From a virus (Duplodnaviria; Heunggongvirae; Uroviricota; Caudoviricetes): DNA of 17,240 nucleotides. Below the pieces are notes generated by a model, which saw only the letters and a list, made by a program, of their open reading frames with translations, had not been told where the DNA came from and searched no databases. The stretch spans positions 1 through 17,240 of the IMG/VR virus record IMGVR_UViG_2671180674_000015. The stretch is one strand, 5' to 3'. Shown piece after piece: positions 1 through 15,517 of the stretch. The translations under genes and the position numbers were made by a program. How positions within the stretch are numbered: position 1 is the first letter of the stretch; each line of letters starts with the position of its first letter.

Positions 1-360
1 GCCGTCCTGTTCCTGAGACAATACGGCACGACCACTGGCGGGCTTGCCCTTAATCGTCCAGCCACGCATATCAGGGATCACGCCTGACGGATAAGCAACT
101 GCAAGTTTCGGGTATGCAGATTTGTCAAAAGTCTGCCCCTGCATCAGGGCATAGCCAGACGGAACGGTATCTGATGGCCACGGGATTGGTGCGCCGACTG
201 GATAAAACTCTGCAGGAGGATGAGCCGAGGTGTAAAGCTGCGCCCACGGCGACCAGTTTGCGTCGATCGTATCCCGTCGTGAACGAATAAATGCCGGAGC
301 ATGAGCACCGCTTGTACCACTCCAGCCGATGAGTAACTCACCTTCGCCAACGGCTGTCAT
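1..360 (-). CDS. Phage side tail fibre protein, C-terminal region (tail-collar-like motif); probably a 5'-truncated remnant, 3' end beyond window start
   Basis: Minus-strand frame from ATG at 360 reads [24 protein letters not shown]...[52 protein letters not shown], with the tail-fibre collar motif YPxL...PDMRGW. The frame stays open upstream to a stop at 457-459. It is absent from the ORF track because it runs off the window. Confidence 0.5.
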
Positions 361-452
361 CCCTTTCAGGTGAATGATATTTCCATACGCTGTTGGATAT
401 CCGTTGTTATACACCTCGTATAAATAGTTTGAATGATTAGCAGTTATGGTGA

Positions 453-659
453 TCAGTCAACCACCAGGGAATAATCCTTCATATTATTATCGTGCTTCAC
501 CAACGCTGCCTCAATTGCTCTGAATGCTTCCAGAGACACCTTATGTTCTATACATGCAATTACAACATCAGGGTAACTCATAGAAATGGTGCTATTAAGC
601 ATATTTTTTACACGAATCAGATCCACGGAGGGATCATCAGCAGATTGTTCTTTATTCAT
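453..659 (-). CDS. ybcW: Small prophage protein of unknown function, DLP12 YbcW-like (68 aa)
   Basis: 68-aa ORF with ATG start, divergent from the ybcV-like gene and adjacent to bor, as in DLP12. Identification is from memory of the DLP12 gene order and size. Confidence 0.55.
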
Positions 660-944
660 TTTGTCGCTCCATGCGCTTGCTCTTCATCTAGCGGTTAAAA
701 TATTACTTCAAATCTTTCTGTATGAAGATTTGAGCACGTTGGCCTTACATACATCTGTCGGTTGTATTTCCCTCCAGAATGCCAGCAGGACCGCACTTTG
801 TTACGCAACCAATACTATTAAGTGAAAACATTCCTAATATTTGACATAAATCATCAACAAAACACAAAGAGGTCAGACCAGATTGAAACGATAAAAACGA
901 TAATGCAAACTACGCGCCCTCGTATCACATGGAAGGTTTTACCA

Positions 945-1355
945 ATGGCTCAGGTTGCCATTTTTAAAGAAATATTCGATCAAGTGCGAAAAGATTTAAA
1001 CTGTGAATTGTTTTATTCTGAACTAAAACGTCACAACGTCTCACATTATATTTACTATCTAGCCACAGATAATATTCACATCGTGTTAGAAAACGATAAC
1101 ACCGTGTTAATAAAAGGACTTAAAAAGGTTGTAAATGTTAAATTCTCAAGAAACACGCATCTTATAGAAACGTCCTATGATAGGTTGAAATCAAGAGAAA
1201 TCACATTTCAGCAATACAGGGAAAATCTTGCTAAAGCAGGAGTTTTCCGATGGGTTACAAATATCCATGAACATAAAAGATATTACTATACCTTTGATAA
1301 TTCATTACTATTTACTGAGAGCATTCAGAACACTACACAAATCTTTCCACGCTAA
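945..1355 (+). CDS. ybcV: DUF1398-family prophage protein, YbcV-like (136 aa from ATG 945; alternative in-frame starts ATG 903, GTG 822)
   Basis: ORF 822-1355. ATG at 945 is preceded by GGAAGG and gives 136 aa. Position next to bor matches DLP12. Confidence 0.6.
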
Positions 1356-1645
1356 ATCATAACGTCCGGTTTCTTCCGTGTCAGCACCGGGGCGTTGGCA
1401 TAATGCAATACGTGTACGCGCTAAACCCTGTGTGCATCGTTTTTAATTATTCCCGGACACTCCCGCAGAGAAGTTCCCCGTCAGGGCTGTGGACATAGTT
1501 AATCCGGGAATACAATGACGATTCATCGCACCTGACATACATTAATAAATATTAACAATATGAAATTTCAACTCATTGTTTAGGGTTTGTTTAATTTTCT
1601 ACACATACGATTCTGCGAACTTCAAAAAGCATCGGGAATAACACC

Positions 1646-1939
1646 ATGAAAAAAATGCTACTCGCTACTGCGCTGGCCCTGCTTATTACAGGATGTGCTC
1701 AACAGACGTTTACTGTTCAAAACAAACCGGCAGCAGTAGCACCAAAGGAAACCATCACCCATCATTTCTTCGTTTCTGGAATTGGGCAGAAGAAAACTGT
1801 CGATGCAGCCAAAATTTGTGGCGGCGCAGAAAATGTTGTTAAAACAGAAACCCAGCAAACATTCGTAAATGGATTGCTCGGTTTTATTACTTTAGGCATT
1901 TATACTCCGCTGGAAGCGCGTGTGTATTGCTCACAATAA
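1646..1939 (+). CDS. bor: Bor outer-membrane lipoprotein (serum-resistance lysogenic conversion protein)
   Basis: 97 aa, signal peptide with lipobox LITGC. Lies opposite to and just downstream of Rz, as lambda bor does. Confidence 0.85.
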   Translation: MKKMLLATALALLITGCAQQTFTVQNKPAAVAPKETITHHFFVSGIGQKKTVDAAKICGGAENVVKTETQQTFVNGLLGFITLGIYTPLEARVYCSQ

Positions 1940-1970
1940 TTGCATGAGTTGCCCATCGATATGGGCAACT

Positions 1971-2432
1971 CTATCTGCACTGCTCATTAATATACTTCTG
2001 GGTTCCTTCCAGTTGTTTTTGCATAGTGATCAGCCTCTCTCTGAGGGTGAAATAATCCCGTTCAGCGGTGTCTGCCAGTCGGGGGGAGGCTGCATTATCC
2101 ACGCCGGAGGCGGTGGTGGCTTCACGCACTGACTGACAGACTGCTTTGATGTGCAACCGACGACGACCAGCGGCAACATCATCACGCAGAGCATCATTTT
2201 CAGCTTTAGCATCAGCTAACTCCTTCGTGTATTTTGCATCGAGCGCAGCAACATCACGCTGACGCATCTGCATGTCAGTAATTGCCGCGTTCGCCAGCTT
2301 CAGTTCTCTGGCATTTTTGTCGCGCTGGGCTTTGTAGGTAATGGCGTTATCACGGTAATGATTAACAGCCCATGACAGGTAGACGATGATGCAGATAACC
2401 AGAGCGGAGATAATCGCGGTTACTCTGTTCAT
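1971..2432 (-). CDS. Rz: Rz i-spanin (inner-membrane spanin subunit)
   Basis: 153 aa from ATG 2432, which overlaps the endolysin stop in an ATGA arrangement. N-terminal TM helix and coiled-coil-like sequence; closely matches lambda Rz as I recall it. Confidence 0.85.
2030..2212 (-). CDS. Rz1: Rz1 o-spanin lipoprotein, embedded in the +1 frame of Rz
   Basis: 60 aa, lipobox VVVGC, proline-rich (PPPPP), wholly nested inside Rz. Confidence 0.85.
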
Positions 2433-2926
2433 TGCTGACCCCACAAACAGATTTCACGCTCAATCTCACGACGAGTCATGAGACCTTTCCATTGCTTACC
2501 GCCAGCATATGTCCAGCGACGTAGCTGATCACATGCGCCTTTGATATCGCCCTGGTTTATTTTGCGAAGAAGCGTCGATGTTCTGAAATTGCCAGCACCC
2601 ACGTTGTAAACGAATGAGTAAAGAGCGCCGCGCGTTGTTTCCGGTATATCGACTTTGATGTACGGGTTAATTTGTCTGGCGACAGTGGCAAGGTCTTTAT
2701 TCAAGAGTGCTTTGCATTCTGCTTTGGTATACGTTTTACCGAGCATGATGTCTTTTCCGGTGTGTCCGTGACATACAGTCCATACGCCAACGATATCTTT
2801 GTATGGTACGTAGCTGACACCTTCCAGACCATCGTTACCACTTGGGCCAGTGATTAACACTGATGCTATAGCAATTGCTCCGCCACCAATAGCAGCAGCA
2901 ACGGCTTTTCGTAATGATGGAGGCAT
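2429..2926 (-). CDS. R: SAR endolysin (T4-lysozyme-like muramidase, phage 21 R-type)
   Basis: 165 aa. N-terminal Gly/Ala-rich signal-anchor-release segment [16 protein letters not shown], followed by an E...D...T catalytic triad pattern. Start overlaps the holin stop. Confidence 0.85.
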
Positions 2927-3141
2927 TATTCACCTCTCGCAGCCTTGCGCTTATCTTCTTTAATCTTGAAATAAAGGTTTGTCAGGTACGTCAGCAGGCC
3001 AAATACCAGGCTACCCAGCACACCTATTGCTGCCCACTGTGAGGGCGTGACTTTATCGAGCAGCTGTAAAAACCAGTACCCGGCACTACCTGCTGAGGTG
3101 CCATAGGCGACACCCGTTGTTAACTTATCCATGGATTTCAT
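2926..3141 (-). CDS. S: Class II holin / pinholin (S21-type) with dual start motif
   Basis: 71 aa, MKSMDK dual-start (Met1/Met4) giving antiholin and holin forms, two TM segments. Sits immediately upstream of the SAR endolysin. Confidence 0.85.
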
Positions 3142-3257
3142 AACCCCACCTCGCAGACAAAGCGGGTGTAAATTGAGGGAATACTACGAAACGTAACAGA
3201 CTCGGAGTCAGTGAATAACTCAGGTATTGGGTTATCAGCTAATATCGAGACTCAAAA

Positions 3258-3292
3258 AATGGAAAAACCCGCTCGACGGCGGGTTTAAGCTG
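3258..3292 (-). terminator. Intrinsic terminator on the minus strand just upstream of the holin gene
   Basis: Minus-strand read AAACCCGC-CGTCGA-GCGGGTTT followed by TTCCATTTTTTG. Confidence 0.5.
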
Positions 3293-3714
3293 TGTGACGA
3301 AGTAACCACTCTTAACAGCATAACCAATTTTTTACGTACGTAAACCACTAAATGATATTTGCGAGAATGCTACCGAGTATTGAAAACACCACTACAAATA
3401 CATAAGCAAATCTCAACAAATAACCAACAAATAATTTCCAGCGTTATTTTTAGTCAATTTAAATTGAACCTTCAAATTATAGAGCACTTATAAATAACAG
3501 CCATTAATATAAATTGGCTAATAGATTTATTTTTATTCAGTCAAGAGCCATGAATAGGATTCGATAGAAAAAAGTTCAGATAAAAATAGAGATCTACTTC
3601 ACAAATCAAACGAGAAACCAAAACTTACATCTTGAAATATTCACATTGATTAGATGAATATTTATCGCGCAGTGACATCATTTTTTAATAATAGTTCAAA
3701 AAAAAGGGCTCACG

Positions 3715-4797
3715 ATGAAAAAATTAACAGTGGCAATTTCTGCTGTAGCTGCATCAGTACTGATGGCGATGTCTGCTCAGGCAGCTGAAATTTATAATAA
3801 AGACAGTAACAAGCTGGATCTGTACGGGAAAGTTAATGCTAAGCACTACTTCTCCTCTAATGATGCAGATGATGGTGATACTACTTATGCCCGTCTTGGC
3901 TTCAAAGGTGAAACCCAAATCAACGATCAACTGACTGGTTTCGGTCAGTGGGAATATGAATTCAAAGGCAACCGCGCTGAATCTCAAGGTTCCTCCAAAG
4001 ATAAAACCCGTCTTGCCTTCGCTGGCCTGAAATTCGGTGACTACGGCTCCATCGATTACGGCCGTAACTACGGTGTAGCATACGACATCGGTGCATGGAC
4101 CGACGTTCTGCCAGAATTCGGTGGCGATACCTGGACCCAAACAGATGTATTCATGACTGGTCGCACCACAGGTGTTGCAACTTATCGTAACAACGACTTC
4201 TTTGGTCTGGTTGATGGCCTGAACTTTGCAGCTCAGTATCAGGGCAAAAATGACCGAAATGAAGTAACTGAAGCTAATGGCGATGGTTTCGGTTTCTCAA
4301 CTACTTATGAGTATGAAGGATTCGGCGTGGGTGCAACCTATGCTAAATCTGATCGCACTAATAATCAGGTTATCTACGGTAACAACGGTCTGAATGCTTC
4401 TGGTCAAAATGCTGAAGTATGGGCAGCTGGTCTGAAATATGATGCGAACAACATCTATCTGGCCACCACCTATTCTGAAACCCAGAACATGACTGTTTTT
4501 GGTAATAACCATATTGCCAACAAAGCACAAAACTTCGAAGCTGTTGCACAATATCAGTTCGACTTCGGCCTGCGTCCATCCGTTGCTTACCTGCATTCTA
4601 AAGGAAAAGACTTGGGTGTTTGGGGTGATCAGGACCTGGTTGAATATGTTGATGTAGGTGCAACCTATTACTTCAACAAAAATATGTCCACTTTTGTTGA
4701 CTACAAAATCAACCTGATTGATAAGAGCGATTTCACGAAAGCATCTGGCGTTGCTACCGATGATATCGTTGCTGTAGGTATGGTTTACCAGTTCTAA
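3715..4797 (+). CDS. nmpC: Outer-membrane general porin, OmpC/OmpF family (NmpC/Lc-like prophage porin moron)
   Basis: 360 aa, signal peptide ending AQA|AE, porin-type beta-barrel with C-terminal Phe (VGMVYQF). Located antisense between Q and the holin, as nmpC is in DLP12 and lc in PA-2. Confidence 0.8.
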
Positions 4798-4811
4798 TTT
4801 GATTACTAAAA

Positions 4812-4893
4812 GATATGTTGTGGGAGGCTTTGCCTCCCCAACATATAAGTGGCTCCCTCAAGCCACTTCCTTTAGAAGCACAACCTTGCTTCT
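4812..4893. other. Cluster of three tandem stem-loops between the porin and Q 3' ends
   Basis: H1 ATATGTTGTGGGAGGC/ttt/GCCTCCCCAACATAT, H2 AAGTGGCT/ccctca/AGCCACTT, H3 AGAAGC/acaacctt/GCTTCT. On the minus strand H1 is followed by CTTTT (tR'-like). Confidence 0.45.
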
Positions 4894-4933
4894 AACTATA
4901 TAAACCTTCTGTTATATATTACCCTTTATTTTT

Positions 4934-4968
4934 GGGGGCGTTTCAACGCCCCATTTTTAATAACTTTT
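4934..4968 (+). terminator. Probable intrinsic terminator downstream of the porin gene
   Basis: GGGGCG/tttcaa/CGCCCC followed by ATTTTTAATAACTTTT on the plus strand. Confidence 0.45.
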
Positions 4969-4985
4969 AGTAAATAATTGGCGTA

Positions 4986-5369
4986 TTAATTAGAGTTATT
5001 AACAACGATATCCATCTCTAACCGGATATCTAATGCCATTAACATCCCTTCAATTATGCCCTCAGCCTTTTGTAACCTTTTCCCGATATAACCATCAGAG
5101 CAGCAATGCTTACCTGCCAGTGACATGAATGTCATACCGACTATATAATAATCTACTAATAAATCGTGCAAATCGCTGTTGTTCTTTTTCAGACGGGCCA
5201 TGCACCCGCAAATGATCATCGCGTCATCGTCACAACATTGCGGGCGAGATTTTACTTTTGAAGGAATTAATCCCTTAAAACCGGCGGCAATGGACGACCA
5301 GGTCACATCTTCATGATTATTAGCCGCCCACGCTCCCCAACGCTCAAGAACCATCTGAATATCACGCAT
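4986..5369 (-). CDS. Q: Late-gene antiterminator Q (phage 82 / DLP12 QuuD-type)
   Basis: ATG at 5369 (MRDIQ...) preceded by GGAG. The track's longer form starts at a TTG. Cys-rich putative zinc-binding region [12 protein letters not shown]. Sits between ylcG and the late/lysis region. Confidence 0.75.
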
Positions 5370-5454
5370 CAACTTACTCCACAAAAATCAGACCAAAACG
5401 CCAATTACAAGCAAAAATCAACAAAACAGTATTAGTTGATTGTTATCTCTGACT

Positions 5455-5595
5455 TCATACTCCTGCTCCTGTCAGGGTTTTGGCGTAACTCTTCAGTATT
5501 CGGTAATCGGTCAAAACAGAACCGGGGAAACGATATAAGCGCAGGCGCACCCAGCGGCGGCGAAGACGTTCTGCCATATAAGACTCAAACATCAT
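5455..5595 (-). CDS. ylcG: Small protein YlcG-like (46 aa), start overlapping the stop of the upstream RusA-derived ORF
   Basis: Reads [46 protein letters not shown], which resembles DLP12 YlcG from memory. Below the ORF-track size cut-off. Confidence 0.55.
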
Positions 5596-6395
5596 TCATC
5601 TCCCAGTTCAGTGATGGTCAGTTCCAGCCTCCCACCTTTGGTAACAGGCATCTTCACAACGCGGTAATCAACGACCTGAGCATCATCCAGCCAGAAACCT
5701 GCTTTGGTGAGTGCGTCAAAAGCGGCCTTTTGCAGATTATCCAGGTCACGGCGACGGCGATCCGGCATGTGGCTACCGCCCATGACAGGAAGTTGTTTTA
5801 CTGGTTCAGGGATCGCCTCACCACGGTTAATTCTCGCAGTCATATGGACAAGCTCATCTGCGGCCTTACGGCGTAATTCCGCATCAGTAAGCGCATTGGC
5901 CCGCATGTTCTGATACAGGTTGGTAACCAGCCAGTAGTGCGCGTTTGATTTCCACGGATAAGACTCCGCATCCGGATACAGGCCTCGCTTCCGGCAATAC
6001 TCGTAAACCATATCAACCAGCTCGCTGACGTTTGGCAGTCCGGCGATAACGGATGCTTCTTCCCGGCACCATGCAACAAACTGCCCGGGTGATGGCAGAA
6101 ATGGTCGATTCTGCCGACGGGCTACGCGCATTCCTGCGTTAACCTGTTCCATTGTGGTGATCCCGTTTTCCCGGAAAGCCAGAACCCACTGGCGGCGGAT
6201 TTCGTTCAGTTCGTTCTGGTCACGGTTAGCCAGACTCGCCGGGAAAGTTGCCAGTAACTGGCTGAACACACCGTTGATGATCTGCGCTACCTGCTGTACC
6301 TGCGGCTTTTCGTCGTACTGTTCCGGCATGTTGTTGGCGATCCGACTCATCTGCTCACGGTCAAAGTTAACCATCTGTGCGGCGATGTTTTTCAT
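5592..6395 (-). CDS. P: Replication protein P (N-terminal ~205 aa) fused in frame to the C-terminal ~60 aa of RusA Holliday-junction resolvase
   Basis: N-terminus [16 protein letters not shown]...[11 protein letters not shown] matches lambda P. The C-terminus [55 protein letters not shown] matches the RusA C-terminus. Junction near 5775. Confidence 0.75.
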
Positions 6396-7291
6396 AGATC
6401 CACCCCGTAAATCCAGTCTGTGTTTGTCAGGTCGAGTTTTGGTTTGCTGGCTGTCACGACTGCCTGTTGCTTGTTACGGTTGATTTCGAGCTGGGTCCAC
6501 TTGTCGCGGAGTTTGGCCGGGCTAAGCACGTTACCGGACCAGAAGTTGTCCTGGCATGCCCAGCGGAACAGCACGCACATGTCGCGGTGGTTACGTCCGT
6601 CACGTTCACGCATCAGGCGGATATCGTTAGCCCACCCTGCAAAATTCGGTTTTCTGGCTGATGGCGCGATGGTCTTCACCATGTCAAACATCCACTCTGC
6701 GGCGGTCAGGTCTTCTGCTGTCCCCCACTTGCTGCCGCTCTGAATTGCAGCATCCGGTTTCACCACAGAAAGGTCGTTTTCTGGCTGGTCAGAGGATTCG
6801 CCAGAATTCTCGGACGAATAATCTTTTCTTTTTTCTTTTGTAATAGTGTCTTTTGTGTCCCCCTGTTTTGAGGGATAGCAATCCCCCAATTTGAGGGATG
6901 TTTTATCCCTCGTTTTAGGGGATTTTCCCTCGTTTTGAGGGATACACCATTCTGAGATGTTTTTATTTGGTCCAAACATGCCGCCTTGCTGCTTGATAAT
7001 ATTCATTCTGACGAGTTCTAACTTGGCTTCATTGCACCGTTTGACAGGTAACTTTGTAATCTCGCTAAGTTGAGAATCGGTGATTCTGTCCATTGGTTTA
7101 TTCCACCCATAGGTTTTACGCAGAATGGCAAGCAGCACTTTAAACTGTCGCTTGGTCAGATCTGCGCCCGAATAAGCCTCAAGCAGCATATTTGATAGTC
7201 TGGCGTAACCATCATCGAGATCTGCCACATTACGCTCCTGTCCGGCAAAGTTACCTCTGCCGAAGTTGAGTATTTTTGCTGTATTTGTCAT
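6392..7291 (-). CDS. O: Replication initiator protein O (lambda-type)
   Basis: 299 aa; stop overlaps the P start (ATGA). Contains the iteron-encoding segment. Strong match to lambda O from memory. Confidence 0.9.
6806..6943. repeat. ori-lambda: four ~19-bp iterons plus adjacent AT-rich region, inside the O gene
   Basis: Direct repeats TCCCCCTGTTTTGAGGGAT, ATCCCCCAATTTGAGGGAT, ATCCCTCGTTTTAGGGGAT, TTCCCTCGTTTTGAGGGAT at 6857-6943, with an A/T tract at 6806-6856. Confidence 0.8.
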
Positions 7292-7301
7292 AATGACTCC
7301 T

Positions 7302-7378
7302 GTTGATAGATCCAGTAATGACCTCAGAACTCCATCTGGATTTGTTCAGAACGCTCGGTTGCCGCCGGGCGTTTTTTA
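7302..7378 (+). ncRNA. oop: OOP antisense RNA (antisense to the cII 3' end) with its intrinsic terminator
   Basis: Plus-strand GTTGATAGATCCAGTAATGACCTCAGAACTCCATCTGGATTTGTTCAGAACGCTCGGTTGCCGCCGGGCGTTTTTT matches my recall of lambda OOP. It overlaps the cII 3' end in antisense and ends in a hairpin plus T-run. Confidence 0.7.
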
Positions 7379-7620
7379 TTGGTGAGTCCATCAAGCGCAT
7401 ACTTAAAAGCCCTGCTAATCGGACTGATGTCTGATGCCATTCCGAAAGCACACAAGACCGAAGCAATAAATCTCCAGTCCGTTCTGCTTATCTTCGATTC
7501 ATGACAGCCAATCATCTTTGCCAGACCGCGCTGGGTAATAGCTGACAGATTGATAAGTAAATCTGTTTCTGCGCGATCAACGTCACGCTGTGATAGTTTG
7601 CTGTAACTTGTTCTTTCCAT
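7324..7620 (-). CDS. cII: CII transcriptional activator (mosaic: heterologous N-terminal part, lambda-like C-terminal tail)
   Basis: 98 aa. C-terminus LTNKKRPAATERSEQIQMEF matches lambda CII; the HTH region differs from lambda. Lies between cro and O. Confidence 0.75.
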   Translation of the reverse strand: MERTSYSKLSQRDVDRAETDLLINLSAITQRGLAKMIGCHESKISRTDWRFIASVLCAFGMASDISPISRAFKYALDGLTNKKRPAATERSEQIQMEF

Positions 7621-7705
7621 TTCTTAAGATTTCCAATAGTGAATAGTTAGTTGAAAGGTATGCGTGGAAACGCATATGGCCTTAGTTGGTCAGATATCTT
7701 GGAAC

Positions 7706-7751
7706 TCGCTTTTCAGCGACGTAGGACGAATGTCCGTTGTTACAAAGAGCG
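7706..7751 (-). promoter_or_regulatory. Putative nutR (boxA CGCTCTTTGTAACAA, intervening hairpin, boxB TCGCT-GAAA-AGCGA)
   Basis: Minus-strand boxA-like sequence 11 nt after the cro stop, then a 5-bp stem with GAAA loop. The same three-part layout recurs downstream of PL. Confidence 0.45.
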
Positions 7752-7761
7752 GATCCGCTTA

Positions 7762-7977
7762 TTAAGCGGCTTTGTGTTCCGGCGGGAACACGTCATCAAG
7801 ACTGACTTTTGCGCCTAACTTGTTTAGGCACGCAACAAGAGCACGGCATGTTTTAAGGTCTGGGAAGCGACGACCAGATTCCCAATGTCCGATAGCTCCC
7901 TGTGTGCATCCAACTGCCTTAGCAAGTGTTGTTTGAGAGATATTCAGTGACTCTCGATATTTTCGTAGGTTGCTCAT
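7762..7977 (-). CDS. cro: Cro-like HTH repressor (71 aa)
   Basis: ATG at 7977 preceded by GGAGGG. HTH segment QTTLAKAVGCTQGAIGHWESGRR. Divergent from cI across the operator region. The track's longer form overlaps the operators and was not used. Confidence 0.7.
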   Translation of the reverse strand: MSNLRKYRESLNISQTTLAKAVGCTQGAIGHWESGRRFPDLKTCRALVACLNKLGAKVSLDDVFPPEHKAA

Positions 7978-8088
7978 ATGCCCTCCATAGTAAACACGAA
8001 TAAAAAAATACAATATGTACTTTACGAATACAAGTAAAAATACATATTGTGCATGGATGGTTCCAGTACAAAGCGTAATAATAAGGAC
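7978..8088. promoter_or_regulatory. Divergent OR/PR/PRM region with three operator-like sites
   Basis: Sites at 8011-8022 (ACAATATGTACT), 8041-8052 (ATACATATTGTG) and 8066-8080 (AGTACAAAGCGTAAT) resemble the OL palindrome AGTACATATCGTACT. A -10-like TAATAT at 8077-8082 places a PRM start at about the cI ATG (leaderless). Confidence 0.5.
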
Positions 8089-8748
8089 ATGAAAATGAAA
8101 TGGTATGAACTGGCTAGATCCAGAATGAAAGAGCTCGGCATAACTCAAGAGAAGTTAGCCGAAGAACTAGGTATGACGCAGGGTGGGATTGGACACTGGT
8201 TGCGCGGATCTCGTCATCCATCTCTTAGTGATATTGGTGTGGTGTTTAAATACCTTGGTATTGATAACATATCATTCAACCACGACGGGACATTTTCACC
8301 TGTTGGCGAATACTCATCGGCCCCAGTTAAAAAACAATATGAGTACCCTGTTTTTTCTCATGTTCAGGCTGGGATGTTCTCTCCAGAACTCAGAACCTTT
8401 ACCAAAGGCGATGCGGAGAGATTGGTAAGCACAACCAAAAAAGCCAGTGACTCTGCATTCTGGCTTGAGGTTGAAGGTAACTCAATGACCGCACCAACAG
8501 GTTCCAAGCCCAGCTTTCCTGACGGGATGTTAATTCTGGTTGACCCTGAGCAGGCTGTTGAGCCAGGCGATTTCTGTATAGCCAGACTTGGTGGTGATGA
8601 GTTTACCTTCAAGAAACTGATCAGGGATAGCGGTCAGGTGTTTCTACAGCCACTAAACCCACAATACCCAATGATCCCATGCAATGAGAGTTGTTCCGTT
8701 GTGGGGAAAGTTATCGCTAGTCAGTGGCCTGAAGAGACGTTTGGGTGA
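8089..8748 (+). CDS. cI: CI prophage repressor, chimeric: heterologous N-terminal HTH domain with lambda-like linker and S24 autocleavage C-terminal domain
   Basis: From [17 protein letters not shown] through the C-terminal ...[12 protein letters not shown] it matches lambda CI (Ala-Gly cleavage site, Ser in GNSM, Lys in KKL). The N-terminal [24 protein letters not shown] is not lambda-like. ATG at 8089 (or 8095). Confidence 0.85.
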
Positions 8749-8794
8749 CAAGAAGCACAGGTATTAACAATAACTTTCATGGTGATACGAATCA

Positions 8795-9337
8795 GTGGCT
8801 AAAAAAGGCGACTTTAAGCCTACCCAGAAAGAGGTTGACCAAGCTATTACTCGCTTGAAAAAAGTAACTTTTAGCGGAGTTACATGGACCGGAAGTGAGG
8901 GACGAACCCCAATCTGGTTTAAATTGGATCTCAAAGCTTTTGATGAAATTGGCAACCCAATCACAGGCATAAGATTTATGCTTCACTGGCGTCCTCCTAT
9001 CGTTGAAGGGGTGGATATAGTGAAGATTTCATTTGTGATGTTTCTTCATGACAGGCGCATTTACGCGCTTGACCCGTACCCTGCGGATAACAAGCCACAC
9101 CGTAATAAATCTATAGTGAACCATCCAGATTTTGTTGAGGTGGCTCGAGGTCCTCACTATCACATGTACTTCGAATCAGCTGGGGAAGAAATTGCACTTA
9201 AGCTTGAAACGAACATCAAGCCAGATGATTTTTTTGGCTACTGGAATTATTTTTGCGAGGCGCTTAATATCATATATGAAGGCAGCCCACCTTTACCTAA
9301 TCAAGATAAATCAGGTCAGCTATCATGGGAAATGTAA
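8795..9337 (+). CDS. Hypothetical protein (180 aa), first gene of an unknown two-gene cassette in the rexA/rexB position
   Basis: ORF opens with GTG at 8795, 46 nt after the cI stop and with no intervening terminator. No motif I recognise. 3' end overlaps the next ORF by 13 nt. Confidence 0.55.
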   Translation: MAKKGDFKPTQKEVDQAITRLKKVTFSGVTWTGSEGRTPIWFKLDLKAFDEIGNPITGIRFMLHWRPPIVEGVDIVKISFVMFLHDRRIYALDPYPADNKPHRNKSIVNHPDFVEVARGPHYHMYFESAGEEIALKLETNIKPDDFFGYWNYFCEALNIIYEGSPPLPNQDKSGQLSWEM

Positions 9338-10101
9338 CGTGTTCAACAGTCATATCTAAGCTCGGGTTTGAATGCCACCCAATGAGCGACACGTTGCTGC
9401 GCGTTATTAGTCCCTTCACATACTACGATGATTGTGAGCAGATAAGTGTATTCGTTCAAGAGATGGGTGGTCAGTATAGGGTTACAGACTACTGCGATAC
9501 ATTGATGAATATTGAATCACGCGGCATCCACCTGACTAAAAAGAAAATTGATCTGATCAGGTCATCACTCGCTTCGCAAGGAATTTCATTAAATGACTCT
9601 GGAGAGATATCTGCGTGGGCAGATGAGTCGTCCGTTGGACAGGTAACTGCAAATGTTATTCGTGGTGGGATTCTTGCATCCGCCCAAACTGCTGATTGGT
9701 ATGCTGAGGTCAAAGACGATAAGTTCGAAAAATGTGTAATCAGTTACTTAAAATCAGCAGGGCTTGGGAAGCGACTAGCCTTAAAGGAAAAAGTGAAAGG
9801 TATTAGTGGGCATAACATTACTGTTCCGTTAACGCTAAGGAATGAGTCTCGACTAATACCACCAAAACGCGGGTTTACGGTAAGCCTTGCCAGCAGTAAG
9901 GGATGGAATACTGCCCACTCAACAGTTGGGAAGATTGTTGACTTAAGTCAGGTCGTTCCTGACATAAACAATAGATTTGTAATAGTTGACAGCGATGGGT
10001 TAACACCTGAGCTACAGCAACTATCACTACTATTTAATGATACCGCACGAGTGTTGCCATTCCATACCAGAGACTCTTGGATTGAGTCTCTGGTAGCCTA
10101 G
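9325..10101 (+). CDS. Hypothetical protein (258 aa from ATG 9325; alternative ATG 9382), second gene of the cassette
   Basis: Long ORF overlapping the upstream ORF's stop, followed directly by a strong terminator. No recognised catalytic motif. Confidence 0.55.
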   Translation: MGNVTCSTVISKLGFECHPMSDTLLRVISPFTYYDDCEQISVFVQEMGGQYRVTDYCDTLMNIESRGIHLTKKKIDLIRSSLASQGISLNDSGEISAWADESSVGQVTANVIRGGILASAQTADWYAEVKDDKFEKCVISYLKSAGLGKRLALKEKVKGISGHNITVPLTLRNESRLIPPKRGFTVSLASSKGWNTAHSTVGKIVDLSQVVPDINNRFVIVDSDGLTPELQQLSLLFNDTARVLPFHTRDSWIESLVA

Positions 10102-10133
10102 AAAAACCCGGCCTCAGCGCCGGGTTTTCTTTG
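10102..10133 (+). terminator. Intrinsic terminator after the immunity-region cassette (t-imm-like)
   Basis: GAAAAACCCGGC-ctcagc-GCCGGGTTTTCTTTG starting right after the TAG stop. Confidence 0.65.
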
Positions 10134-10305
10134 CCTCACGATCGCCCCACCTAAAAACACATAACCAATTGTATTTATTGAAAAATAAATAGATGCAACC
10201 CACTAAACCACGCAATTCTGATCTCTCCTTACATCGCCGAGGCAATACATCCACGCTAAAAAACAACACTATTAAATACAAAGCGTTATAAAAAACCACG
10301 CCAAC

Positions 10306-10356
10306 TTACAACAAATTGTATTGATCTTGTAAAGTACATATCGTACTATTTAACCG
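10306..10356 (+). promoter_or_regulatory. PL promoter with OL operator(s)
   Basis: -35 TTGATC (10321-10326), 17-nt spacer, -10 TACTAT (10344-10349). Palindromic operator AGTACATATCGTACT (10333-10347) overlaps the spacer and -10; a second related site is at 10311-10322. Confidence 0.5.
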
Positions 10357-10394
10357 TCAGCAGGACGCTGGAAGCCAAATGGAACAGACTGGCA

Positions 10395-10440
10395 GGCTCT
10401 TTAAACAACGTCGACTCTCGACTACGTGGCTGAAAAGCCA
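10395..10440 (+). promoter_or_regulatory. Putative nutL (boxA GGCTCTTTAAACAA, intervening hairpin GTCGA-ctc-TCGAC, boxB TGGCT-GAAA-AGCCA)
   Basis: BoxA-like sequence about 40 nt downstream of the predicted PL start, then a 5-bp stem with GAAA loop. Architecture parallels the nutR candidate. Confidence 0.45.
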
Positions 10441-10538
10441 GATCACCCAACCACATAAGCTGTGGGATGCAATGCCGAAGCAACCGTCTCAGGAGGAGCT
10501 TCGAGATTGCATCGCCAAAGTTTATTCGGGAGGAATCC

Positions 10539-10811
10539 ATGTCCAGAAAAACAGAATTTAAAGGCACCGCAGCTTCTCGCCGTAGAGCTCGTCGCGCAAA
10601 TCTGCAAAGTCAGGAGGCGATCAGCTCCGACAAGCTACACAGGCCAACCCCTTCACGAGTGGTCTTGCAATGCAAGCGCAAACCAGCAATGAGAGCAGAA
10701 GTGATAACTCTGACAACGTTGACCAGAAAATATGAAGGTTCAACTTGTCTTCCGAACGTAGCTCTTTACGCGGCAGGCTACCGGAAATCAAAACAACTGA
10801 CGGCGAGATGA
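10539..10811 (+). CDS. N: N-type transcription antiterminator (arginine-rich motif; P22 gene 24-like C-terminus)
   Basis: 90 aa from ATG 10539 with RBS GGGAGGA. N-terminal ARM GTAASRRRARRA; C-terminal ...LPNVALYAAGYRKSKQLTAR. First gene downstream of PL and nutL. Confidence 0.75.
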   Translation: MSRKTEFKGTAASRRRARRANLQSQEAISSDKLHRPTPSRVVLQCKRKPAMRAEVITLTTLTRKYEGSTCLPNVALYAAGYRKSKQLTAR

Positions 10812-10827
10812 TAAATTCATTTGCTAA

Positions 10828-11409
10828 TTACTTGTTTTTGCCATGCTTATCCTGAGCGATAAGTTCATCCATAAGGCTGTCTGCCTTCCCGGCAAACCGA
10901 ATGTAGCACTCATTTCTATAGCGTTCCGGGATAACAAAACGGTCGATTTCAGGATATCCAGTAGCAGAAGGTATCCGAATAAGAAGCCCTTTTTCGAGCA
11001 ATGAGATTGCTTCAGGGCTTCCCTTTTCTGTCTTTAGCTGGTTATTCGCGGCTACAGCGAATGCCAAATACGCTCTTTCTCCAAGAGTTAACGAATCAAA
11101 CAAATCTTGCACATATTTTTCTTCTTTAGATTTGCGCTTCTGAGCAGCGGATACCTCAATTCTTTCAGTCACAGCGTGATAAGCGGAATTAACAACACCG
11201 TTAAGCACATAGCTAACGCAGAACAACAGGATGTAATACATCCAATAATAAGGAAGGATTTCTGGATTATGCAGGTTTATCCATTCTTTTACGCTTACCG
11301 GCATAACAATAATCAATATGATCAGGATGATTAGCATATGAATCAACTGTTTAAGTGTCATTCCTTGCAGGAAAAAATGCATTAGTTCCTGCCACCATGA
11401 GTTGTTCAT
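10828..11409 (-). CDS. sieB: Superinfection exclusion protein B (SieB)-like membrane protein
   Basis: 193 aa, hydrophobic N-terminal segment LIHMLIILIILIIVMPV. Convergent with and directly abutting N, as lambda sieB is. Confidence 0.7.
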   Translation of the reverse strand: MNNSWWQELMHFFLQGMTLKQLIHMLIILIILIIVMPVSVKEWINLHNPEILPYYWMYYILLFCVSYVLNGVVNSAYHAVTERIEVSAAQKRKSKEEKYVQDLFDSLTLGERAYLAFAVAANNQLKTEKGSPEAISLLEKGLLIRIPSATGYPEIDRFVIPERYRNECYIRFAGKADSLMDELIAQDKHGKNK

Positions 11410-11552
11410 CGGCGTTTCTCTTTTGCTCTCTGTAGGGGTGAATAGAGTTTATCCGATTTCTCGCTGTAGGGGTACACGAGAACCACCGAGCCTGATGTGG
11501 TTAAAAGACAGGCACAATCTTTACTACCGCAATCCACTATTTAAGGTGATAT

Positions 11553-11639
11553 ATGGAAGAAGAATTTGAAGAGTTCGAAGAGCATCCTCAGGATGTGATG
11601 GAACAATACCAGGACTATCCGTATGACTACGACTATTGA
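11553..11639 (+). CDS. Small acidic ORF (28 aa), lambda orf28-like
   Basis: Reads MEEEFEEFEEHPQDVMEQYQDYPYDYDY. Its 3' end overlaps the ral start. Confidence 0.4.
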   Translation: MEEEFEEFEEHPQDVMEQYQDYPYDYDY

Positions 11640-11823
11640 TAAAAATCAATGGTGTGGACAATTCAAGCGATGCAATGGATGCAAGCTGCAATCGGAATGC
11701 ATGGTTAAGCCTGAAGAAATGTTTCCTGTAATGGAAGATGGGAAATATGTCGATAAATGGGCAATACGAACGACGGCAATGATTGCCAGAGAACTTGGTA
11801 AACAGAACAACAAAGCTGCCTGA
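11623..11823 (+). CDS. ral: Ral restriction-alleviation protein
   Basis: 66 aa, MTTTIDKNQWCGQFKRCNGCKLQSEC..., matches lambda Ral from memory; lambda gene order. Confidence 0.8.
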   Translation: MTTTIDKNQWCGQFKRCNGCKLQSECMVKPEEMFPVMEDGKYVDKWAIRTTAMIARELGKQNNKAA

Positions 11824-11957
11824 TAGTGGCCTTTATTTTTGGCATAAATAACAGAATAAACACTGCACTGTGTATTCATTCCAACGAGTGAATACACGGA
11901 GCAATGTCGCTCGTAACTAAACAGGAGCCGACTTGTTCTGATTATTGGAAATCTTCT

Positions 11958-11986
11958 TTGCCCTCCAATGTGAGGGCGATTTTTTA
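11958..11986 (+). terminator. Candidate intrinsic terminator or attenuator upstream of ea10 (tL2-like)
   Basis: GCCCTC-caatgt-GAGGGC followed by GATTTTTTA. Confidence 0.45.
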
Positions 11987-12005
11987 TCTGTGAGGATATG
12001 AACAG

Positions 12006-12374
12006 ATGTCAAACATCAAAAAATACATCATTGATTACGACTGGAAAGCATCAATAGAAATTGAAATCGACCATGACGTAATGACAGAGGAAAAACTTCA
12101 CCAGATTAATAATTTCTGGTCAGACTCTGAATACCGACTCAATAAACACGGCTCTTTATTAAATGCTGTATTAATCATGCTGGCGCAACATGCTCTGCTT
12201 ATAGCAATTTCAAGCGACTTAAATGCATATGGTGTTGTGTGTGAGTTCGACTGGAATGATGGAAATGGTCAGGAAGGATGGCCTCCAATGGATGGTAGCG
12301 AAGGAATAAGAATTACCGATATCGATACATCAGGAATATTTGATTCAGATGATATGACTATCAAAGCCGCCTGA
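12006..12374 (+). CDS. ea10: Ea10-like protein
   Basis: 122 aa, RBS GAGGA, located between ral and cIII as in lambda. Confidence 0.65.
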   Translation: MSNIKKYIIDYDWKASIEIEIDHDVMTEEKLHQINNFWSDSEYRLNKHGSLLNAVLIMLAQHALLIAISSDLNAYGVVCEFDWNDGNGQEGWPPMDGSEGIRITDIDTSGIFDSDDMTIKAA

Positions 12375-12446
12375 GCGCTGCGTTACCGCATACCAATAAC
12401 GCTTCACTCGAGGCGTTTTTCGTTATGTATAAATAAGGAGCACACC

Positions 12447-12611
12447 ATGCAATATGCCATTGCAGGGTGGCCTGTTGCTGGCTGCTCTTCCGAATCTTTA
12501 CTTGAACGAATCACCCGTAAATTACGTGACGGATGGAAACGCCTTATCGACATACTTAATCAGCCAGGAGTCCCAAAAAATGGATCAAACACTTATGGCT
12601 ATCCAGACTAA
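12447..12611 (+). CDS. cIII: CIII (FtsH inhibitor that stabilises CII)
   Basis: 54 aa, [54 protein letters not shown]. Below the ORF-track cut-off. Confidence 0.8.
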   Translation: MQYAIAGWPVAGCSSESLLERITRKLRDGWKRLIDILNQPGVPKNGSNTYGYPD

Positions 12612-12723
12612 ATTCACTATCGCCACTTTTATTGGCGATGAAAAGATGTTTCGTGAGGCCGTCGACGCTTATAAAAAATGGATATTAATACTGAAACTGA
12701 GATCAAGCAAAAGCATTCACTAA
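12580..12723 (+). CDS. kil: Kil (host cell-division inhibitor)
   Basis: 47 aa, [47 protein letters not shown]; overlaps the cIII 3' end and the gam 5' end. Confidence 0.75.
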
Positions 12724-13094
12724 CCCCCTTTCCTGTTTTCCTAATCAGCCCGGCATTTCGCGGGCGATATTTTCACAGCTATTTCAGGAGTTCAGCCATG
12801 AACGCTTATTACATTCAGGATCGTCTTGAGGCTCAGAGCTGGGCGCGTCACTACCAGCAGATCGCCCGTGAAGAGAAAGAGGCAGAACTGGCAGACGACA
12901 TGGAAAAAGGCCTGCCCCAGCACCTGTTTGAATCGCTATGCATCGATCATTTGCAACGCCACGGGGCCAGCAAAAAAGCCATTACCCGTGCGTTTGATGA
13001 CGATGTTGAGTTTCAGGAACGCATGGCAGAACACATCCGGTACATGGTTGAAACTATTGCTCGCCACCAGGTTGATATTGATTCAGAGGTATAA
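12678..13094 (+). CDS. gam: Gam (RecBCD inhibitor)
   Basis: 138 aa, near-identical to lambda Gam from memory; internal start MNAYYIQ for the short form. Confidence 0.9.
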
Positions 13095-13099
13095 AACGG

Positions 13100-13885
13100 A
13101 TGAGTACAGCACTCGCAACGCTGGCAGGGAAGCTGGCTGAACGTGTCGGCATGGATTCTGTCGACCCACAGGAACTGATCACCACTCTTCGCCAGACGGC
13201 ATTTAAAGGTGATGCCAGCGATGCGCAGTTCATCGCATTGTTGATCGTCGCCAACCAGTACGGCCTTAATCCGTGGACGAAAGAAATTTACGCCTTCCCT
13301 GACAAGCAGAACGGCATCGTTCCGGTGGTGGGCGTTGATGGCTGGTCCCGTATCATCAATGAAAACCAGCAGTTTGATGGCATGGACTTTGAGCAGGACA
13401 ATGAATCATGTACATGCCGGATTTACCGCAAGGACCGTAATCATCCGATCTGCGTTACCGAGTGGATGGATGAATGCCGCCGCGAACCATTCAAAACCCG
13501 CGAAGGCAGAGAAATCACCGGACCGTGGCAGTCGCATCCCAAACGGATGTTACGGCATAAAGCCATGATTCAGTGTGCCCGTCTGGCCTTCGGATTTGCT
13601 GGTATCTATGACAAGGATGAAGCCGAGCGCATTGTCGAAAATACCGCATACACTGCAGAACGTCAGCCGGAACGCGACATCACTCCGGTTAACGATGAAA
13701 CCATGCAGGAGATTAACACTCTGCTGATTGCCCTGGACAAAACATGGGATGACGACTTATTGCCGCTCTGTTCCCAGATATTTCGCCGCGACATTCGCGC
13801 ATCGTCAGAACTGACACAGGCCGAAGCAGTGAAAGCTCTTGGATTCCTGAAACAGAAAGCCTCTGAACAGAAGGTGGCTGCATGA
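13100..13885 (+). CDS. bet: Bet (Red-beta single-strand annealing protein)
   Basis: 261 aa, matches lambda Bet. Confidence 0.9.
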
Positions 13886-14562
13886 CACCGGACATTATCC
13901 TGCAGCGTACCGGGATCGACGTGAGAGCTGTCGAACAGGGGGATGATGCGTGGCACAAATTACGGCTCGGCGTCATCACCGCTTCAGAAGTTCACAATGT
14001 GATAGCAAAACCCCGCTCCGGAAAGAAATGGCCTGACATGAAAATGTCCTACTTCCACACCCTGCTTGCCGAGGTTTGCACCGGTGTGGCTCCGGAAGTT
14101 AACGCTAAGGCGCTGGCCTGGGGAAAACAGTACGAGAACGACGCCAGAGCCCTCTTTGAGTTCACTTCCGGCGTGAATGTTACTGAATCCCCGATCATCT
14201 ATCGCGACGAAAGTATGCGCACCGCCTGCTCTCCCGATGGTTTATGCAGTGACGGCAATGGCCTTGAACTGAAATGCCCGTTTACCTCACGGGATTTCAT
14301 GAAGTTCCGGCTCGGTGGTTTCGAGGCCATAAAATCGGCTTACATGGCCCAGGTGCAGTACAGCATGTGGGTGACACGAAAAGATGCCTGGTACTTTGCC
14401 AACTATGACCCGCGTATGAAGCGTGAAGGCCTGCATTATGTCGTGATTGAGCGGGATGAAAAGTACATGGCGAGTTTTGACGAGATGGTGCCGGAGTTCA
14501 TCGAAAAAATGGACGAGGCACTGGCTGAAATTGGTTTTGTATTTGGGGAGCAATGGCGATGA
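13882..14562 (+). CDS. exo: Exo (lambda exonuclease, Red-alpha)
   Basis: 226 aa, matches lambda Exo; start overlaps the bet stop. Confidence 0.9.
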
Positions 14563-14741
14563 AGCATCCTCACGATAATATCCGGGTAGGCGCGATCACT
14601 TTCGTCTACTCCGTTACAAAGCGAGGCTGGGTATTTCCCGGCCTTTCTGTTATCCGAAATCCCCTGAAAGCACAGCGGCTGGCTGAGGAGATAAATAATA
14701 AACGGGGAGCTGTATGCACAAAGCATCTCCCGTTGAGTTAA
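14553..14741 (+). CDS. Lambda orf60a-like small protein
   Basis: 62 aa; start overlaps the exo 3' end; lambda-like position. Confidence 0.55.
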
Positions 14742-14905
14742 GAACGAGTATCGAGATGGCACATAGCCTCGCTCAAATTGGAGTCAGGTTTGTGCCAATT
14801 CCAGTAGAAACAGACGAAGAATTTCATACGTTAGCCGCATCCCTTTCACAAAAGCTGGAAATGATGGTGGCGAAAGCAGAAGCAGATGAGAGAGACCAGG
14901 TATGA
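14714..14905 (+). CDS. Lambda orf63-like small protein
   Basis: 63 aa, overlaps neighbouring ORFs; lambda-like position. Confidence 0.55.
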   Translation: MHKASPVELRTSIEMAHSLAQIGVRFVPIPVETDEEFHTLAASLSQKLEMMVAKAEADERDQV

Positions 14906-14985
14906 CAACCACTGAATGCATTTTTCTGGTAGCGGGCTTCATATTCTGTGTGCTTATGCTTGCCGACATGGGACTTGTTCAATGA
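14902..14985 (+). CDS. Hydrophobic micro-ORF (27 aa), start and stop overlapping the flanking genes
   Basis: Reads MTTTECIFLVAGFIFCVLMLADMGLVQ; ATGA overlaps at both ends. Confidence 0.3.
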   Translation: MTTTECIFLVAGFIFCVLMLADMGLVQ

Positions 14986-15197
14986 CACCTCAGCAAGAAA
15001 ACGCCCTTCGCAGTATTGCCCGTCAGGCTAATTCTGAAATCAAAAAAGCCAGACAGCAGTTTCCGGATAAAAACGTCGATGACATTTGCCGTAGCGTACT
15101 GAAGAAGCACCGCGAAACGGTAACGCTGATGGGATTCACACCGACTCATTTAAGCCTGGCGATCGGCATGTTAAACGGCGTCTTTAAGGAACGGTGA
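14982..15197 (+). CDS. Lambda orf61-like small protein (alternative longer start at ATG 14916)
   Basis: Reads MTPQQENALRSIARQANSEIKKARQQF...; lambda-like position. Confidence 0.5.
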   Translation: MTPQQENALRSIARQANSEIKKARQQFPDKNVDDICRSVLKKHRETVTLMGFTPTHLSLAIGMLNGVFKER

Positions 15198-15217
15198 GCA
15201 TGAAAAACAAAATCATC

Positions 15218-15243
15218 ATGGAGCTACAGGCTCCTTTTTTATT
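15218..15243 (+). terminator. Weak intrinsic terminator candidate
   Basis: GGAGC-tacag-GCTCC followed by TTTTTTATT. Confidence 0.35.
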
Positions 15244-15295
15244 ATTCGCATTCACCCTCAAGCGTATTAACCAACAATTCAGGGATTAATGAAAG

Positions 15296-15517
15296 ATGGC
15301 AGACATCATTGATTCAGCATCAGAAATTGAAGAATTACAGCGCAACACAGCAATAAAAATGCGCCGCCTGAACCACCAGGCTATATCTGCCACTCATTGT
15401 TGTGAGTGTGGCGATCCGATAGATGAACGAAGACGCCTGGCCGTTCAGGGTTGTCGGACTTGTGCAAGTTGCCAGGAGGATCTGGAACTTATCAGTAAAC
15501 AGAGAGGTTCGAAGTGA
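15296..15517 (+). CDS. TraR/DksA-family C4 zinc-finger protein (lambda orf73-like)
   Basis: 73 aa with CxxC...CxxC (CCECGD ... CRTCASC), typical of TraR/DksA C4 fingers. Confidence 0.7.
   Translation: MADIIDSASEIEELQRNTAIKMRRLNHQAISATHCCECGDPIDERRRLAVQGCRTCASCQEDLELISKQRGSK

Follow-up and report, generated by a model that had tools for sequence, protein, structure and literature searches.

An antisense NmpC/Lc-type porin cassette probably separates the antiterminator gene Q from its late promoter in a lambdoid prophage

We investigated the late control region of a lambdoid prophage, a virus of the Caudoviricetes, in a stretch of 17,240 nucleotides (nt) that comprises positions 1 to 17,240 of IMG/VR record IMGVR_UViG_2671180674_000015 and is called the window throughout. 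Between the gene for the antiterminator Q and the holin gene, at 3142-4985, lies a porin gene on the opposite strand. The sequence is very probably best explained by an antisense porin cassette inserted between Q and its target, the late promoter pR', with late transcription starting downstream of the porin. Most likely, late transcription does not cross the porin. A first-pass annotation of the same DNA had put the porin inside the leader of the late operon. We found that the homologue of pR' lies at 3263-3345, between the porin and the holin, and both this homology and co-variation with the Q clade lead us to predict the late promoter there. A position upstream of pR' does not place the porin under late transcription, and the proposed coupling of porin expression to late transcription is therefore not borne out. 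The module itself is already known: it is the nmpC/lc porin of DLP12-/PA-2-like lambdoid prophages.

The position of the late promoter emerged from a sensitive search with the 573-bp spacer between porin and holin as the query. The search matched 356 phage records, most of which, chiefly Shiga toxin (Stx) phages, align solely at query positions 122-204, corresponding to 3263-3345 of the window. On the minus strand this block is 77-78% identical to a cassette for which the late-gene strand of 933W and VT1-Sakai carries the annotations pR' (TTTACG-16-TATCAT), qut, and first rho-independent terminator, and it is collinear with that cassette element by element (Table 1). Downstream of the -10 the window leader reads GTTAAGAGTGGTTACTTCGTCACACAG. 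The hairpin of the putative late terminator tR' corresponds by homology to the terminator annotated first downstream of pR' in both 933W and VT1-Sakai; its stem is kept in most of six phages compared (with one mismatch in PhiR40_1), and its loop varies. This hairpin, at 3265-3286, was also considered as the terminator of a plus-strand gene and rejected, since its U-run lies on the minus strand and there is no plus-strand gene that ends at this point. In the Stx phages of Sakai, differential RNA sequencing (dRNA-seq) placed the pR' start 258 nt upstream of a 3' end mapped by Term-seq, and Stx-phage pR' is described as constitutive and terminated in lysogens (PMC7547250). On the VT1-Sakai sequence the mapped start falls 7-9 nt after the annotated -10, which corresponds to about 3310 in the window; a start there would lie 169 nt from the holin ATG. 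The -35 is separated from the Q stop codon by 1,641 bp. The promoter thus does not immediately follow Q, and the same is true of 76 of the 99 viral contigs or loci holding both Q and the leader core that we surveyed.

Conservation of the promoter block and its pairing with Q point in the same direction. A scan of IMG/VR for the leader core TAAGAGTGGTTACWTYGYCAC returned 119 oriented loci, and a conservation profile was made from 116 IMG/VR segments, 77 of them unique. Among the 77 unique segments, conservation is restricted to an 80-bp block extending from the promoter spacer through the terminator U-run, and the -10 shows the pattern T-A-n-n-n-T. The -35 is overlapped by a palindrome of 8-14 bp, which is followed by an A-run. 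In the 97 loci that have a PF06530 Q upstream of the leader core, six palindrome classes pair with six Q clades without exception, across more than 20 spacings or cargo contents and over Q-promoter distances from -8 bp to 2.45 kb. The QuuD/Q933W/PhiR40 clade (50 loci) is found with TTTACGTACGTAAA, TTTACGATCGTAAA, and TTTACAATCGTAAA, the 1720a type (22 loci) with GCGGTCCGC, and the SfII type (17 loci) with GCGTACGC and GCGCACGC. The remaining pairs join cluster 4 (5 loci) to TGTTATAACA, clusters 7 and 11 (2 loci) to TGGAATTCCA, and cluster 9 (1 locus) to ATTCGTTACGAAT. By comparison, the leader 3' of the palindrome is near-identical in all Q clades. Because palindrome and Q clade pair in this way, 3254-3344 appears to be the site at which Q acts, and this pairing is our strongest evidence. 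We therefore regard the palindrome as a candidate allele-specific Q-binding element. To our knowledge, the DNA site of the Q933W/QuuD/SfII-type Q subfamily has not been described so far. For Q21, use of a direct repeat has been reported (bioRxiv 10.1101/651190).

Table 1. Coordinates, strands, and supporting details of features in the window, with slot-cargo loci from IMG/VR in the last row
Feature	Position	Strand	Details
Rz spanin	1971-2444	minus	Phage_lysis, E 3e-54
Endolysin (phage lysozyme)	2429-2926	minus	Phage_lysozyme, E 8e-46
Holin, S21 type, class II, dual start MKSM	2926-3141	minus	PF04971, E 2e-35; first late gene
tR' (putative)	3254-3286	minus	AAACCCGCCG-TCGA-GCGGGTTT then TTCCATTTTTT; hairpin 3265-3286 and U-run called by terminator scan
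+1 (about A3310, predicted) and early transcribed leader (qut region in the 933W annotation)	3287-3316	minus	TGTTAAGAGTGGTTACTTCG(C/T)CACACAG at least 90% conserved in all Q clades
pR' (predicted)	3317-3344	minus	-35 TTTACG 3344-3339, 16-bp spacer, -10 TATGCT 3322-3317; aligns with pR' of 933W/VT1-Sakai
Palindrome TTTACGTACGTAAA	3344-3331	minus	Overlaps the pR' -35; candidate Q-binding element
Porin regulatory region, AT-rich, part of the moron	3346-3714	plus	26-30% GC; 97% identical to the DLP12 and PA-2 upstream regions
sigmaE-like promoter GAACTA-16-TCACT (probable), +1 near 3666	3666-3697	minus, towards lysis genes	From published primers and motif
NmpC/Lc-type porin, 360 aa	3715-4797	plus	Porin_1 1-337/337, E 4e-152
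Convergent spacer with five hairpins	4798-4985	both	Plus: porin 3' untranslated region/IpeX homologue; minus: 3' end of the Q transcript
Long hairpin	4812-4846	either	15 pairs, one bulge; minus-strand tail CUUUUAG; no U-run on plus; not called by terminator scan
Intrinsic terminator of the porin/IpeX transcript	4935-4960	plus	GGGGCGTTTCAACGCCCC then ATTTTT; stem 4935-4952; called by terminator scan
Q antiterminator, QuuD type, 127 aa from the ATG at 5369	4986-5369	minus	PF06530, E 1e-53
Slot-cargo loci	L089 2582-4196 (SfII); L174/L099; L108/L147/L184/L190; L007 1648-2094; others L090-L207		IMG/VR

Several points weigh against placing pR' between the porin and the holin. The placement is built on homology and co-variation, and the Q-palindrome pairing could partly reflect linkage rather than function. 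Linkage alone is unlikely, because the pairing survives repeated exchange of the cargo between Q and the promoter. The pR' hexamers agree with the sigma70 consensus at 8 of 12 positions, and the -10 is TATGCT where 933W has TATCAT. We found no convincing -10-like sigma-dependent pause element (TAnnnT) in the leader, which has TACTTC where 933W has TACATT. Moreover, in the Sakai Stx phages the pR' RNA has its mapped 3' end at the second terminator, 258 nt downstream (PMC7547250). The homologue of the first hairpin must therefore be at least partly read through in those phages, and the efficiency of tR' is putative; between tR' and the holin, the window has no second terminator. Finally, the '+1' that PMC7918800 takes for DLP12 corresponds to about 3666 and not to 3310, so that another promoter, probably sigmaE-dependent, would also feed the lysis genes.

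The boundaries of the cassette are visible in Q itself. By sequence, Q belongs to the Q21/Q933W family of antiterminators: its PF06530 match covers 118 of 118 profile positions, it is 98% identical to QuuD of DLP12 and 78% identical to Q933W, and it is related to the solved Q21 structures 6P18 and 6JNX (E 1e-7). The mechanically called open reading frame (ORF) begins at a TTG at 5384, and the ATG start is at 5369. Similarity to Q933W ends after codon 120, at about 5009 of the window. The last seven codons, IVVNNSN, are unrelated to Q933W, which runs about 30 codons further into its promoter; this tail appears to belong to the inserted segment. We also considered a phage-82-type Q and rejected it: the features of the 82 pR', an extended -10-like repeat and GCC at +15-17 (PMC5001585), were sought just downstream of Q and none fitted, and the Pfam and PDB searches led to the Q21/933W family. 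Within Q, at 5120-5149 on the plus strand, there is a sigma70-like site, GTGACA-18-TATAAT (11/12), antisense to the gene and directed towards its 5' end, which recalls the anti-Q promoter paQ of lambda.

What occupies the junction between Q and pR' in other phages? Q and pR' are adjacent or overlapping in the 933W, VT1-Sakai, and 1720a-02 types, where the gap from Q to the promoter is -8 to 31 bp; by another measure the two are about 15-38 bp apart in the 1720a-02 types. The porin has thus come to lie between neighbours that adjoin each other in these phages. In the survey of 99 loci, Q abuts the promoter in 23, a porin lies between them in 33, and about 19 other cassettes fill the junction in the remaining 43. 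The main ORFs are antisense to Q in 18 of the 20 cargo types. Some of this cargo was recognised by PADLOC as anti-phage defence: PDC-M53 A and B in Shigella phage SfII and three further contigs; KwaB of the Kiwa system (E 2e-126), beside a 173-aa ORF; and PDC-S20, a KAP-type NTPase (E 1e-177). More than ten one- to three-gene cassettes in the slot had no Pfam or PADLOC match. A shallow search of the literature found no paper naming a Q-to-pR' slot, and we make no claim of novelty for it.

The cargo of the window is, by its sequence, a general bacterial porin (PF00267) of the OmpC/OmpF/PhoE group and of the NmpC/Lc branch within it. The protein scores 515 bits against a cut-off of 484 for the NCBIfam 'porin OmpC' subfamily, its best solved relatives are OmpK37 and OmpC (E 1e-135), and it is 90% identical to Lc of phage PA-2 (GenBank J02580). 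Residues 1-23 are the same as the annotated Lc signal peptide, the C-terminal ...VYQF is retained, and the differences from Lc are concentrated at residues ~181-235 and 263-268. The gene is a single 360-aa ORF without frameshift, stop, or insertion sequence. A pseudogene, as in K-12, is thus ruled out. Among loci L009-L088, whose Q, pR' block, and holin are 98-100% identical, we observed three porin alleles: 360 aa at ~98-100%, 360 aa at ~94%, and 365 aa at ~90-91%. Together with the clustered differences from Lc, these alleles suggest that a limited portion of the protein is undergoing diversifying change. The view of the first-pass annotation that this is an OmpC-family porin moron agrees with the full-length Porin_1 match, the score above the subfamily cut-off, a plus-strand terminator of its own at 4935-4952, the deviating base composition, and the location between elements that adjoin each other in relatives. 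The gene also stands as a candidate for lysogenic conversion, being a homologue of both nmpC and lc. Lc reportedly became, through Schnaitman and colleagues in the 1970s-80s, the classical lysogenic-conversion porin, expressed in lysogens. OmpC is the receptor of PA-2, and PA-2 lysogens produce Lc.

The region upstream of the porin would supply the cassette with its own promoter, the activity of which is known for the 97%-identical region of K-12: there, removal of -199 to -1 upstream of nmpC abolishes PnmpC activity (PMC11677980). CRP sites are annotated upstream of lc in the PA-2 record, and the equivalent position in the window is ~3586-3606. The nmpC/essD region is among the H-NS-associated 'promoter islands' (PMC3661553). 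The 570 bp between porin and holin had been described as AT-rich, which holds for 3300-3700 (26-30% GC) but not for the 200 bp adjoining the holin (40-50% GC). The same region probably contains a second entry into the lysis genes. The primers of PMC7918800 cover '-121 to +650' of an RpoE-regulated start site of the DLP12 lysis cassette that is credited to Rueggeberg 2015. They map to 3787 and 3016 of the window, putting the +1 at 3666 +/- 1 on the minus strand; the reporter fragment for the DLP12 lysis operon covers the porin start to the holin and not the end of Q. On the strand opposite the porin gene, 50 bp before its ATG, there is a GAACTA-16-TCACT motif. Position 3666 is probably a host-controlled, sigmaE-type start located between the porin ATG and the holin.

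On the other side of the porin, the 188-bp spacer that separates it from Q folds strongly in both directions (z of -8.9 on the plus and -8.1 on the minus strand). Among phage records it is confined to the 36 that carry the porin, PA-2 and 434B (in its DLP12-derived region) among them, with 94-99.5% identity, and it is ~96% identical to the DLP12-type spacer. The stem at 4935-4952 belongs to its sole canonical terminator, which ends 26 nt short of the Q stop codon. About 163 nt lie between the porin stop codon and this terminator, which fits IpeX, a 167-nt DLP12 RNA processed from the phage porin transcript (PMC12197685). IpeX represses ompC and ompF (PMC5069750; IpeX likewise in PMC3333887). 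In position, length, identity, and strong structure, the 3' untranslated region (UTR) of the window porin matches the IpeX region, and by analogy the cassette may combine a new porin with a repressor of the major porins of the host. The first-pass annotation had seen two minus-strand terminator-like hairpins flanking the moron. Both hairpins exist, and the one at 3265-3286 was called by our terminator scan; the one at 4812-4846 was not, and its tail is CUUUUAG. The hairpin described at 3258-3292 is the predicted late terminator tR' and not a flank of the moron, and that at 4812-4846 appears to be a structural element of the porin 3' UTR and at best a weak minus-strand terminator of the Q/pR transcript. 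The likely 3' ends of the Q and porin transcripts converge, with an overlap of ~150 nt inside the five-hairpin array. There is thus a potential for sense-antisense interplay between the tail of the Q mRNA and the IpeX/porin 3' UTR.

How would such a region work in the life of the prophage? A porin cassette of ~1.66 kb (~3345-5009) would have been inserted antisense exactly at the junction of the Q 3' end and pR'. It would have brought an AT-rich regulatory region, the porin, an IpeX-type structured 3' UTR, a terminator of its own, and a new tail for Q. In the lysogen, the porin would be transcribed from its own promoter as far as its own plus-strand terminator, and its 3' UTR would be processed to IpeX, which would lower OmpC and OmpF and so swap the major porins. 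At the same time, pR' (+1 ~3310) would fire towards the holin and halt at the hairpin 3286-3265 and its U-run. Upon induction, Q made from the pR operon would bind the palindrome that overlaps the -35 and load on RNA polymerase at pR', and the Q-modified polymerase would pass tR' into holin, endolysin, and Rz, leaving the porin uncrossed. This scheme supposes that the window copy behaves like its homologues and that the palindrome is the Q-binding site. For the transcription start (Sakai Stx phages), IpeX, and PnmpC activity, it draws on published work on close homologues.

Could the late transcript begin elsewhere? A late promoter directly after Q, as in lambda, 933W, 82, and 21, is the default expectation, and the first-pass annotation followed it: pR' and qut would lie at 4800-4985 (minus), and a Q-modified polymerase would read antisense through the porin and both hairpins, coupling the porin to late transcription. 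Q antitermination is processive enough for 1.6 kb, a weak TTGAAA-19-TAATAT is present on the minus strand near Q, and the hairpin 4846-4812 is followed by CUUUU. However, the spacer beside Q is linked to the porin cassette and found solely with it, and no match to the conserved pR' leader core exists within 4798-4985; the sole good match in the window is at 3302-3314. The 933W pR' homologue, which co-varies with the Q clade, is at 3263-3345. A generic promoter scan called no minus-strand promoter in 4800-4985 or in the other spacer, and it missed pR' too (8/12 against a threshold of 9/12), so that it is uninformative here. We consider a late start beside Q extremely improbable. Another possibility is that the lysis genes form mainly a host-controlled sigmaE operon starting at ~3666, as in cryptic DLP12, and that the pR'-like block is a relic. 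The '-121 to +650' fragment does put the DLP12 +1 at ~3666, on the GAACTA-16-TCACT motif, and the prophage looks defective in that its P and RusA genes are fused. However, transcription from 3666 would still run into the terminator at 3265-3286. Moreover, the 80-bp block is kept in functional phages (PA-2, 434B, ev243, and the PhiR series) and, unlike a relic, it co-varies with Q, and control of the DLP12 lysis operon by Q is cited as established (PMC7918800). A purely vestigial pR' is accordingly quite improbable.

A third proposal is compatible with the insertion of a porin cassette between Q and pR' and could be added to it. Transcripts from pR that are antiterminated by N might continue past the Q stop codon and cross the porin antisense, shutting the cassette in lytic growth, and read-through of the porin terminator might yield an anti-Q RNA in the lysogen. 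Q and the porin do converge, with the porin terminator just 26 nt from the Q stop codon and the sole candidate terminator for Q ending ~15 nt from the porin stop codon. Leak-through past 4812-4846 is plausible because its U-tract is weak. The window has a lambda-like pL/pR organisation (cI, cII, O, P, and the cIII thermoregulator), and convergence with Q recurs in the 18 of 20 slot cargo types noted above. Nevertheless, the argument is inferential throughout, and no N gene or nut sites were identified in the window. In K-12, moreover, IS5 transposition was unaffected by an rrnB terminator placed between nmpC and quuD, from which the authors of that work concluded that, while the cryptic prophage is uninduced, transcription from the quuD side does not pass through the locus (PMC11677980). 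We regard this addition as conceivable but rather unlikely.

The arrangement of Q, antisense porin, and holin, with the order and strands given in the first-pass annotation, is widespread and not a chance assembly. Segments matching the 2.5-kb Q-porin-holin region over at least 80% of its length are present in 36 phage genomes, including PA-2, the DLP12-substituted 434B, ev243, and the PhiR series, and likewise in 2,396 of 5,426 complete E. coli genomes. All 80 of the QuuD-type Q loci in IMG/VR have the antisense porin, and 78 of the 80 also have the promoter cassette and an S21-type holin; these 80 loci are near-identical, and the diversity used above came from the leader-motif scan. DLP12 of K-12 has the same gene order and relative strands, quuD(+)-nmpC(-)-essD(+)-rrrD-rzpD (the 'qsr' region), and its porin-holin spacer is ~97% identical to that of the window, as are those of 434B and PA-2, the entire pR' block included. 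Its borD and ybcV lie downstream and match the Bor and DUF1398 genes of the window. However, nmpC of K-12 is broken by IS5 after codon 346, whereas the window porin is intact and ~91% identical over the part that K-12 retains; IpeX of DLP12 accordingly comes from an IS5-disrupted porin. The early regions differ as well, with the P-RusA fusion of the window in place of the nin region. In PA-2, lc is located between the lysis genes and the ORF1/Q end and shares the upstream region with the annotated CRP sites, but Lc has 365 aa and there is a 16-bp insertion near the holin.

The Stx phages 933W, H-19B, and VT1-Sakai have a Q of the same Pfam family and a collinear promoter, leader, and first terminator. 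In contrast to the window, their Q is longer (157 aa) and its last codons overlap pR', whereas the Q of the window is cut to 127 aa and 1.64 kb of antisense cargo lie between. StxS results from a second terminator at +258 in these phages, with tRNAs and stx beyond it, whereas the window has a single terminator and then the holin. As an autonomous unit with its own promoter and terminator, probably expressed from the prophage, the porin cassette resembles the lambda morons bor and lom and the prophage defence hotspots (P2/P4 and the rexAB and sieB positions), and the anti-phage systems that relatives hold in the porin's slot add to the likeness with the hotspots. However, bor and lom of lambda, and stx, lie inside the late operon, while the porin of the window converges with Q and is placed at the Q-pR' junction, ahead of the late promoter.

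The rest of the window fits a lambdoid prophage. The ORF listing and Pfam/Rfam scans identified O, a P-RusA fusion, cII, an S24-type repressor, SieB, the cIII thermoregulator, RecT/YqaJ recombinases, Bor, and a DUF1398 gene. In agreement with the first-pass annotation, the ORF listing and Pfam confirm the porin as the only gene between Q and the holin: no other supported gene was found within 3142-4985, the ORFs on the minus strand of the porin gene being shadow ORFs and those in the 573-bp gap between porin and holin not exceeding 44 aa. The holin has the same sequence (100% identity) as EssD and the holin/antiholin of 434B. The P-RusA fusion is a single 267-aa ORF at 5592-6395 (minus), in which residues 38-198 form a complete lambda-P domain and RusA contributes its C-terminal part (profile positions 76-123). 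Such a fusion has the look of an in-frame deletion that took away the 3' end of P, the nin region, and the 5' end of rusA, and it suggests that the prophage is defective. Directly downstream of the S24-type repressor, in the rexAB position, are genes at 8795-10101 (plus) and 10828-11409 (minus) with a weak match to DUF6978 and a match to DUF1828, respectively, and a homologue of the superinfection-exclusion protein SieB comes after this pair. All three are candidates for further lysogen-protective cargo. The DUF1398 (ybcV-like) gene and the Bor lipoprotein gene, at 822-1355 and 1646-1939 (plus), lie antisense downstream of Rz, as in DLP12 and lambda. The Rfam model Lambda_thermo (the cIII thermoregulator) matches 12434-12492 (plus) at 84 bits (E 2e-19), and the pL arm is lambda-like. 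In the Rfam gathering scan of the whole window this was the sole match, with none in 3142-4985; Rfam has no IpeX or StxS family.

What does the finding mean? For annotation, pR' and tR' belong between the porin and the holin and not beside Q. With regard to the porin, the value of our work is one of correction and filing, as this is a long-known porin, present in nearly half of complete E. coli genomes. A broader proposal, which we advance tentatively and with somewhat less than even confidence, is that the Q-pR' junction in Q933W/QuuD/SfII-type phages is a dedicated, orientation-constrained slot for genes that serve the lysogen. The cassettes of unknown type would then be candidate defence systems, the palindromes would be allele-specific Q-binding elements, and the convergent 3' ends might switch the cargo off on induction. 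The pairing of Q clade and palindrome offers candidate Q-binding elements and predicts which Q allele would drive which late operon, including stx in Stx phages. Moreover, the Q-pR' slot may be a cheap place to seek new prophage-borne defence genes.

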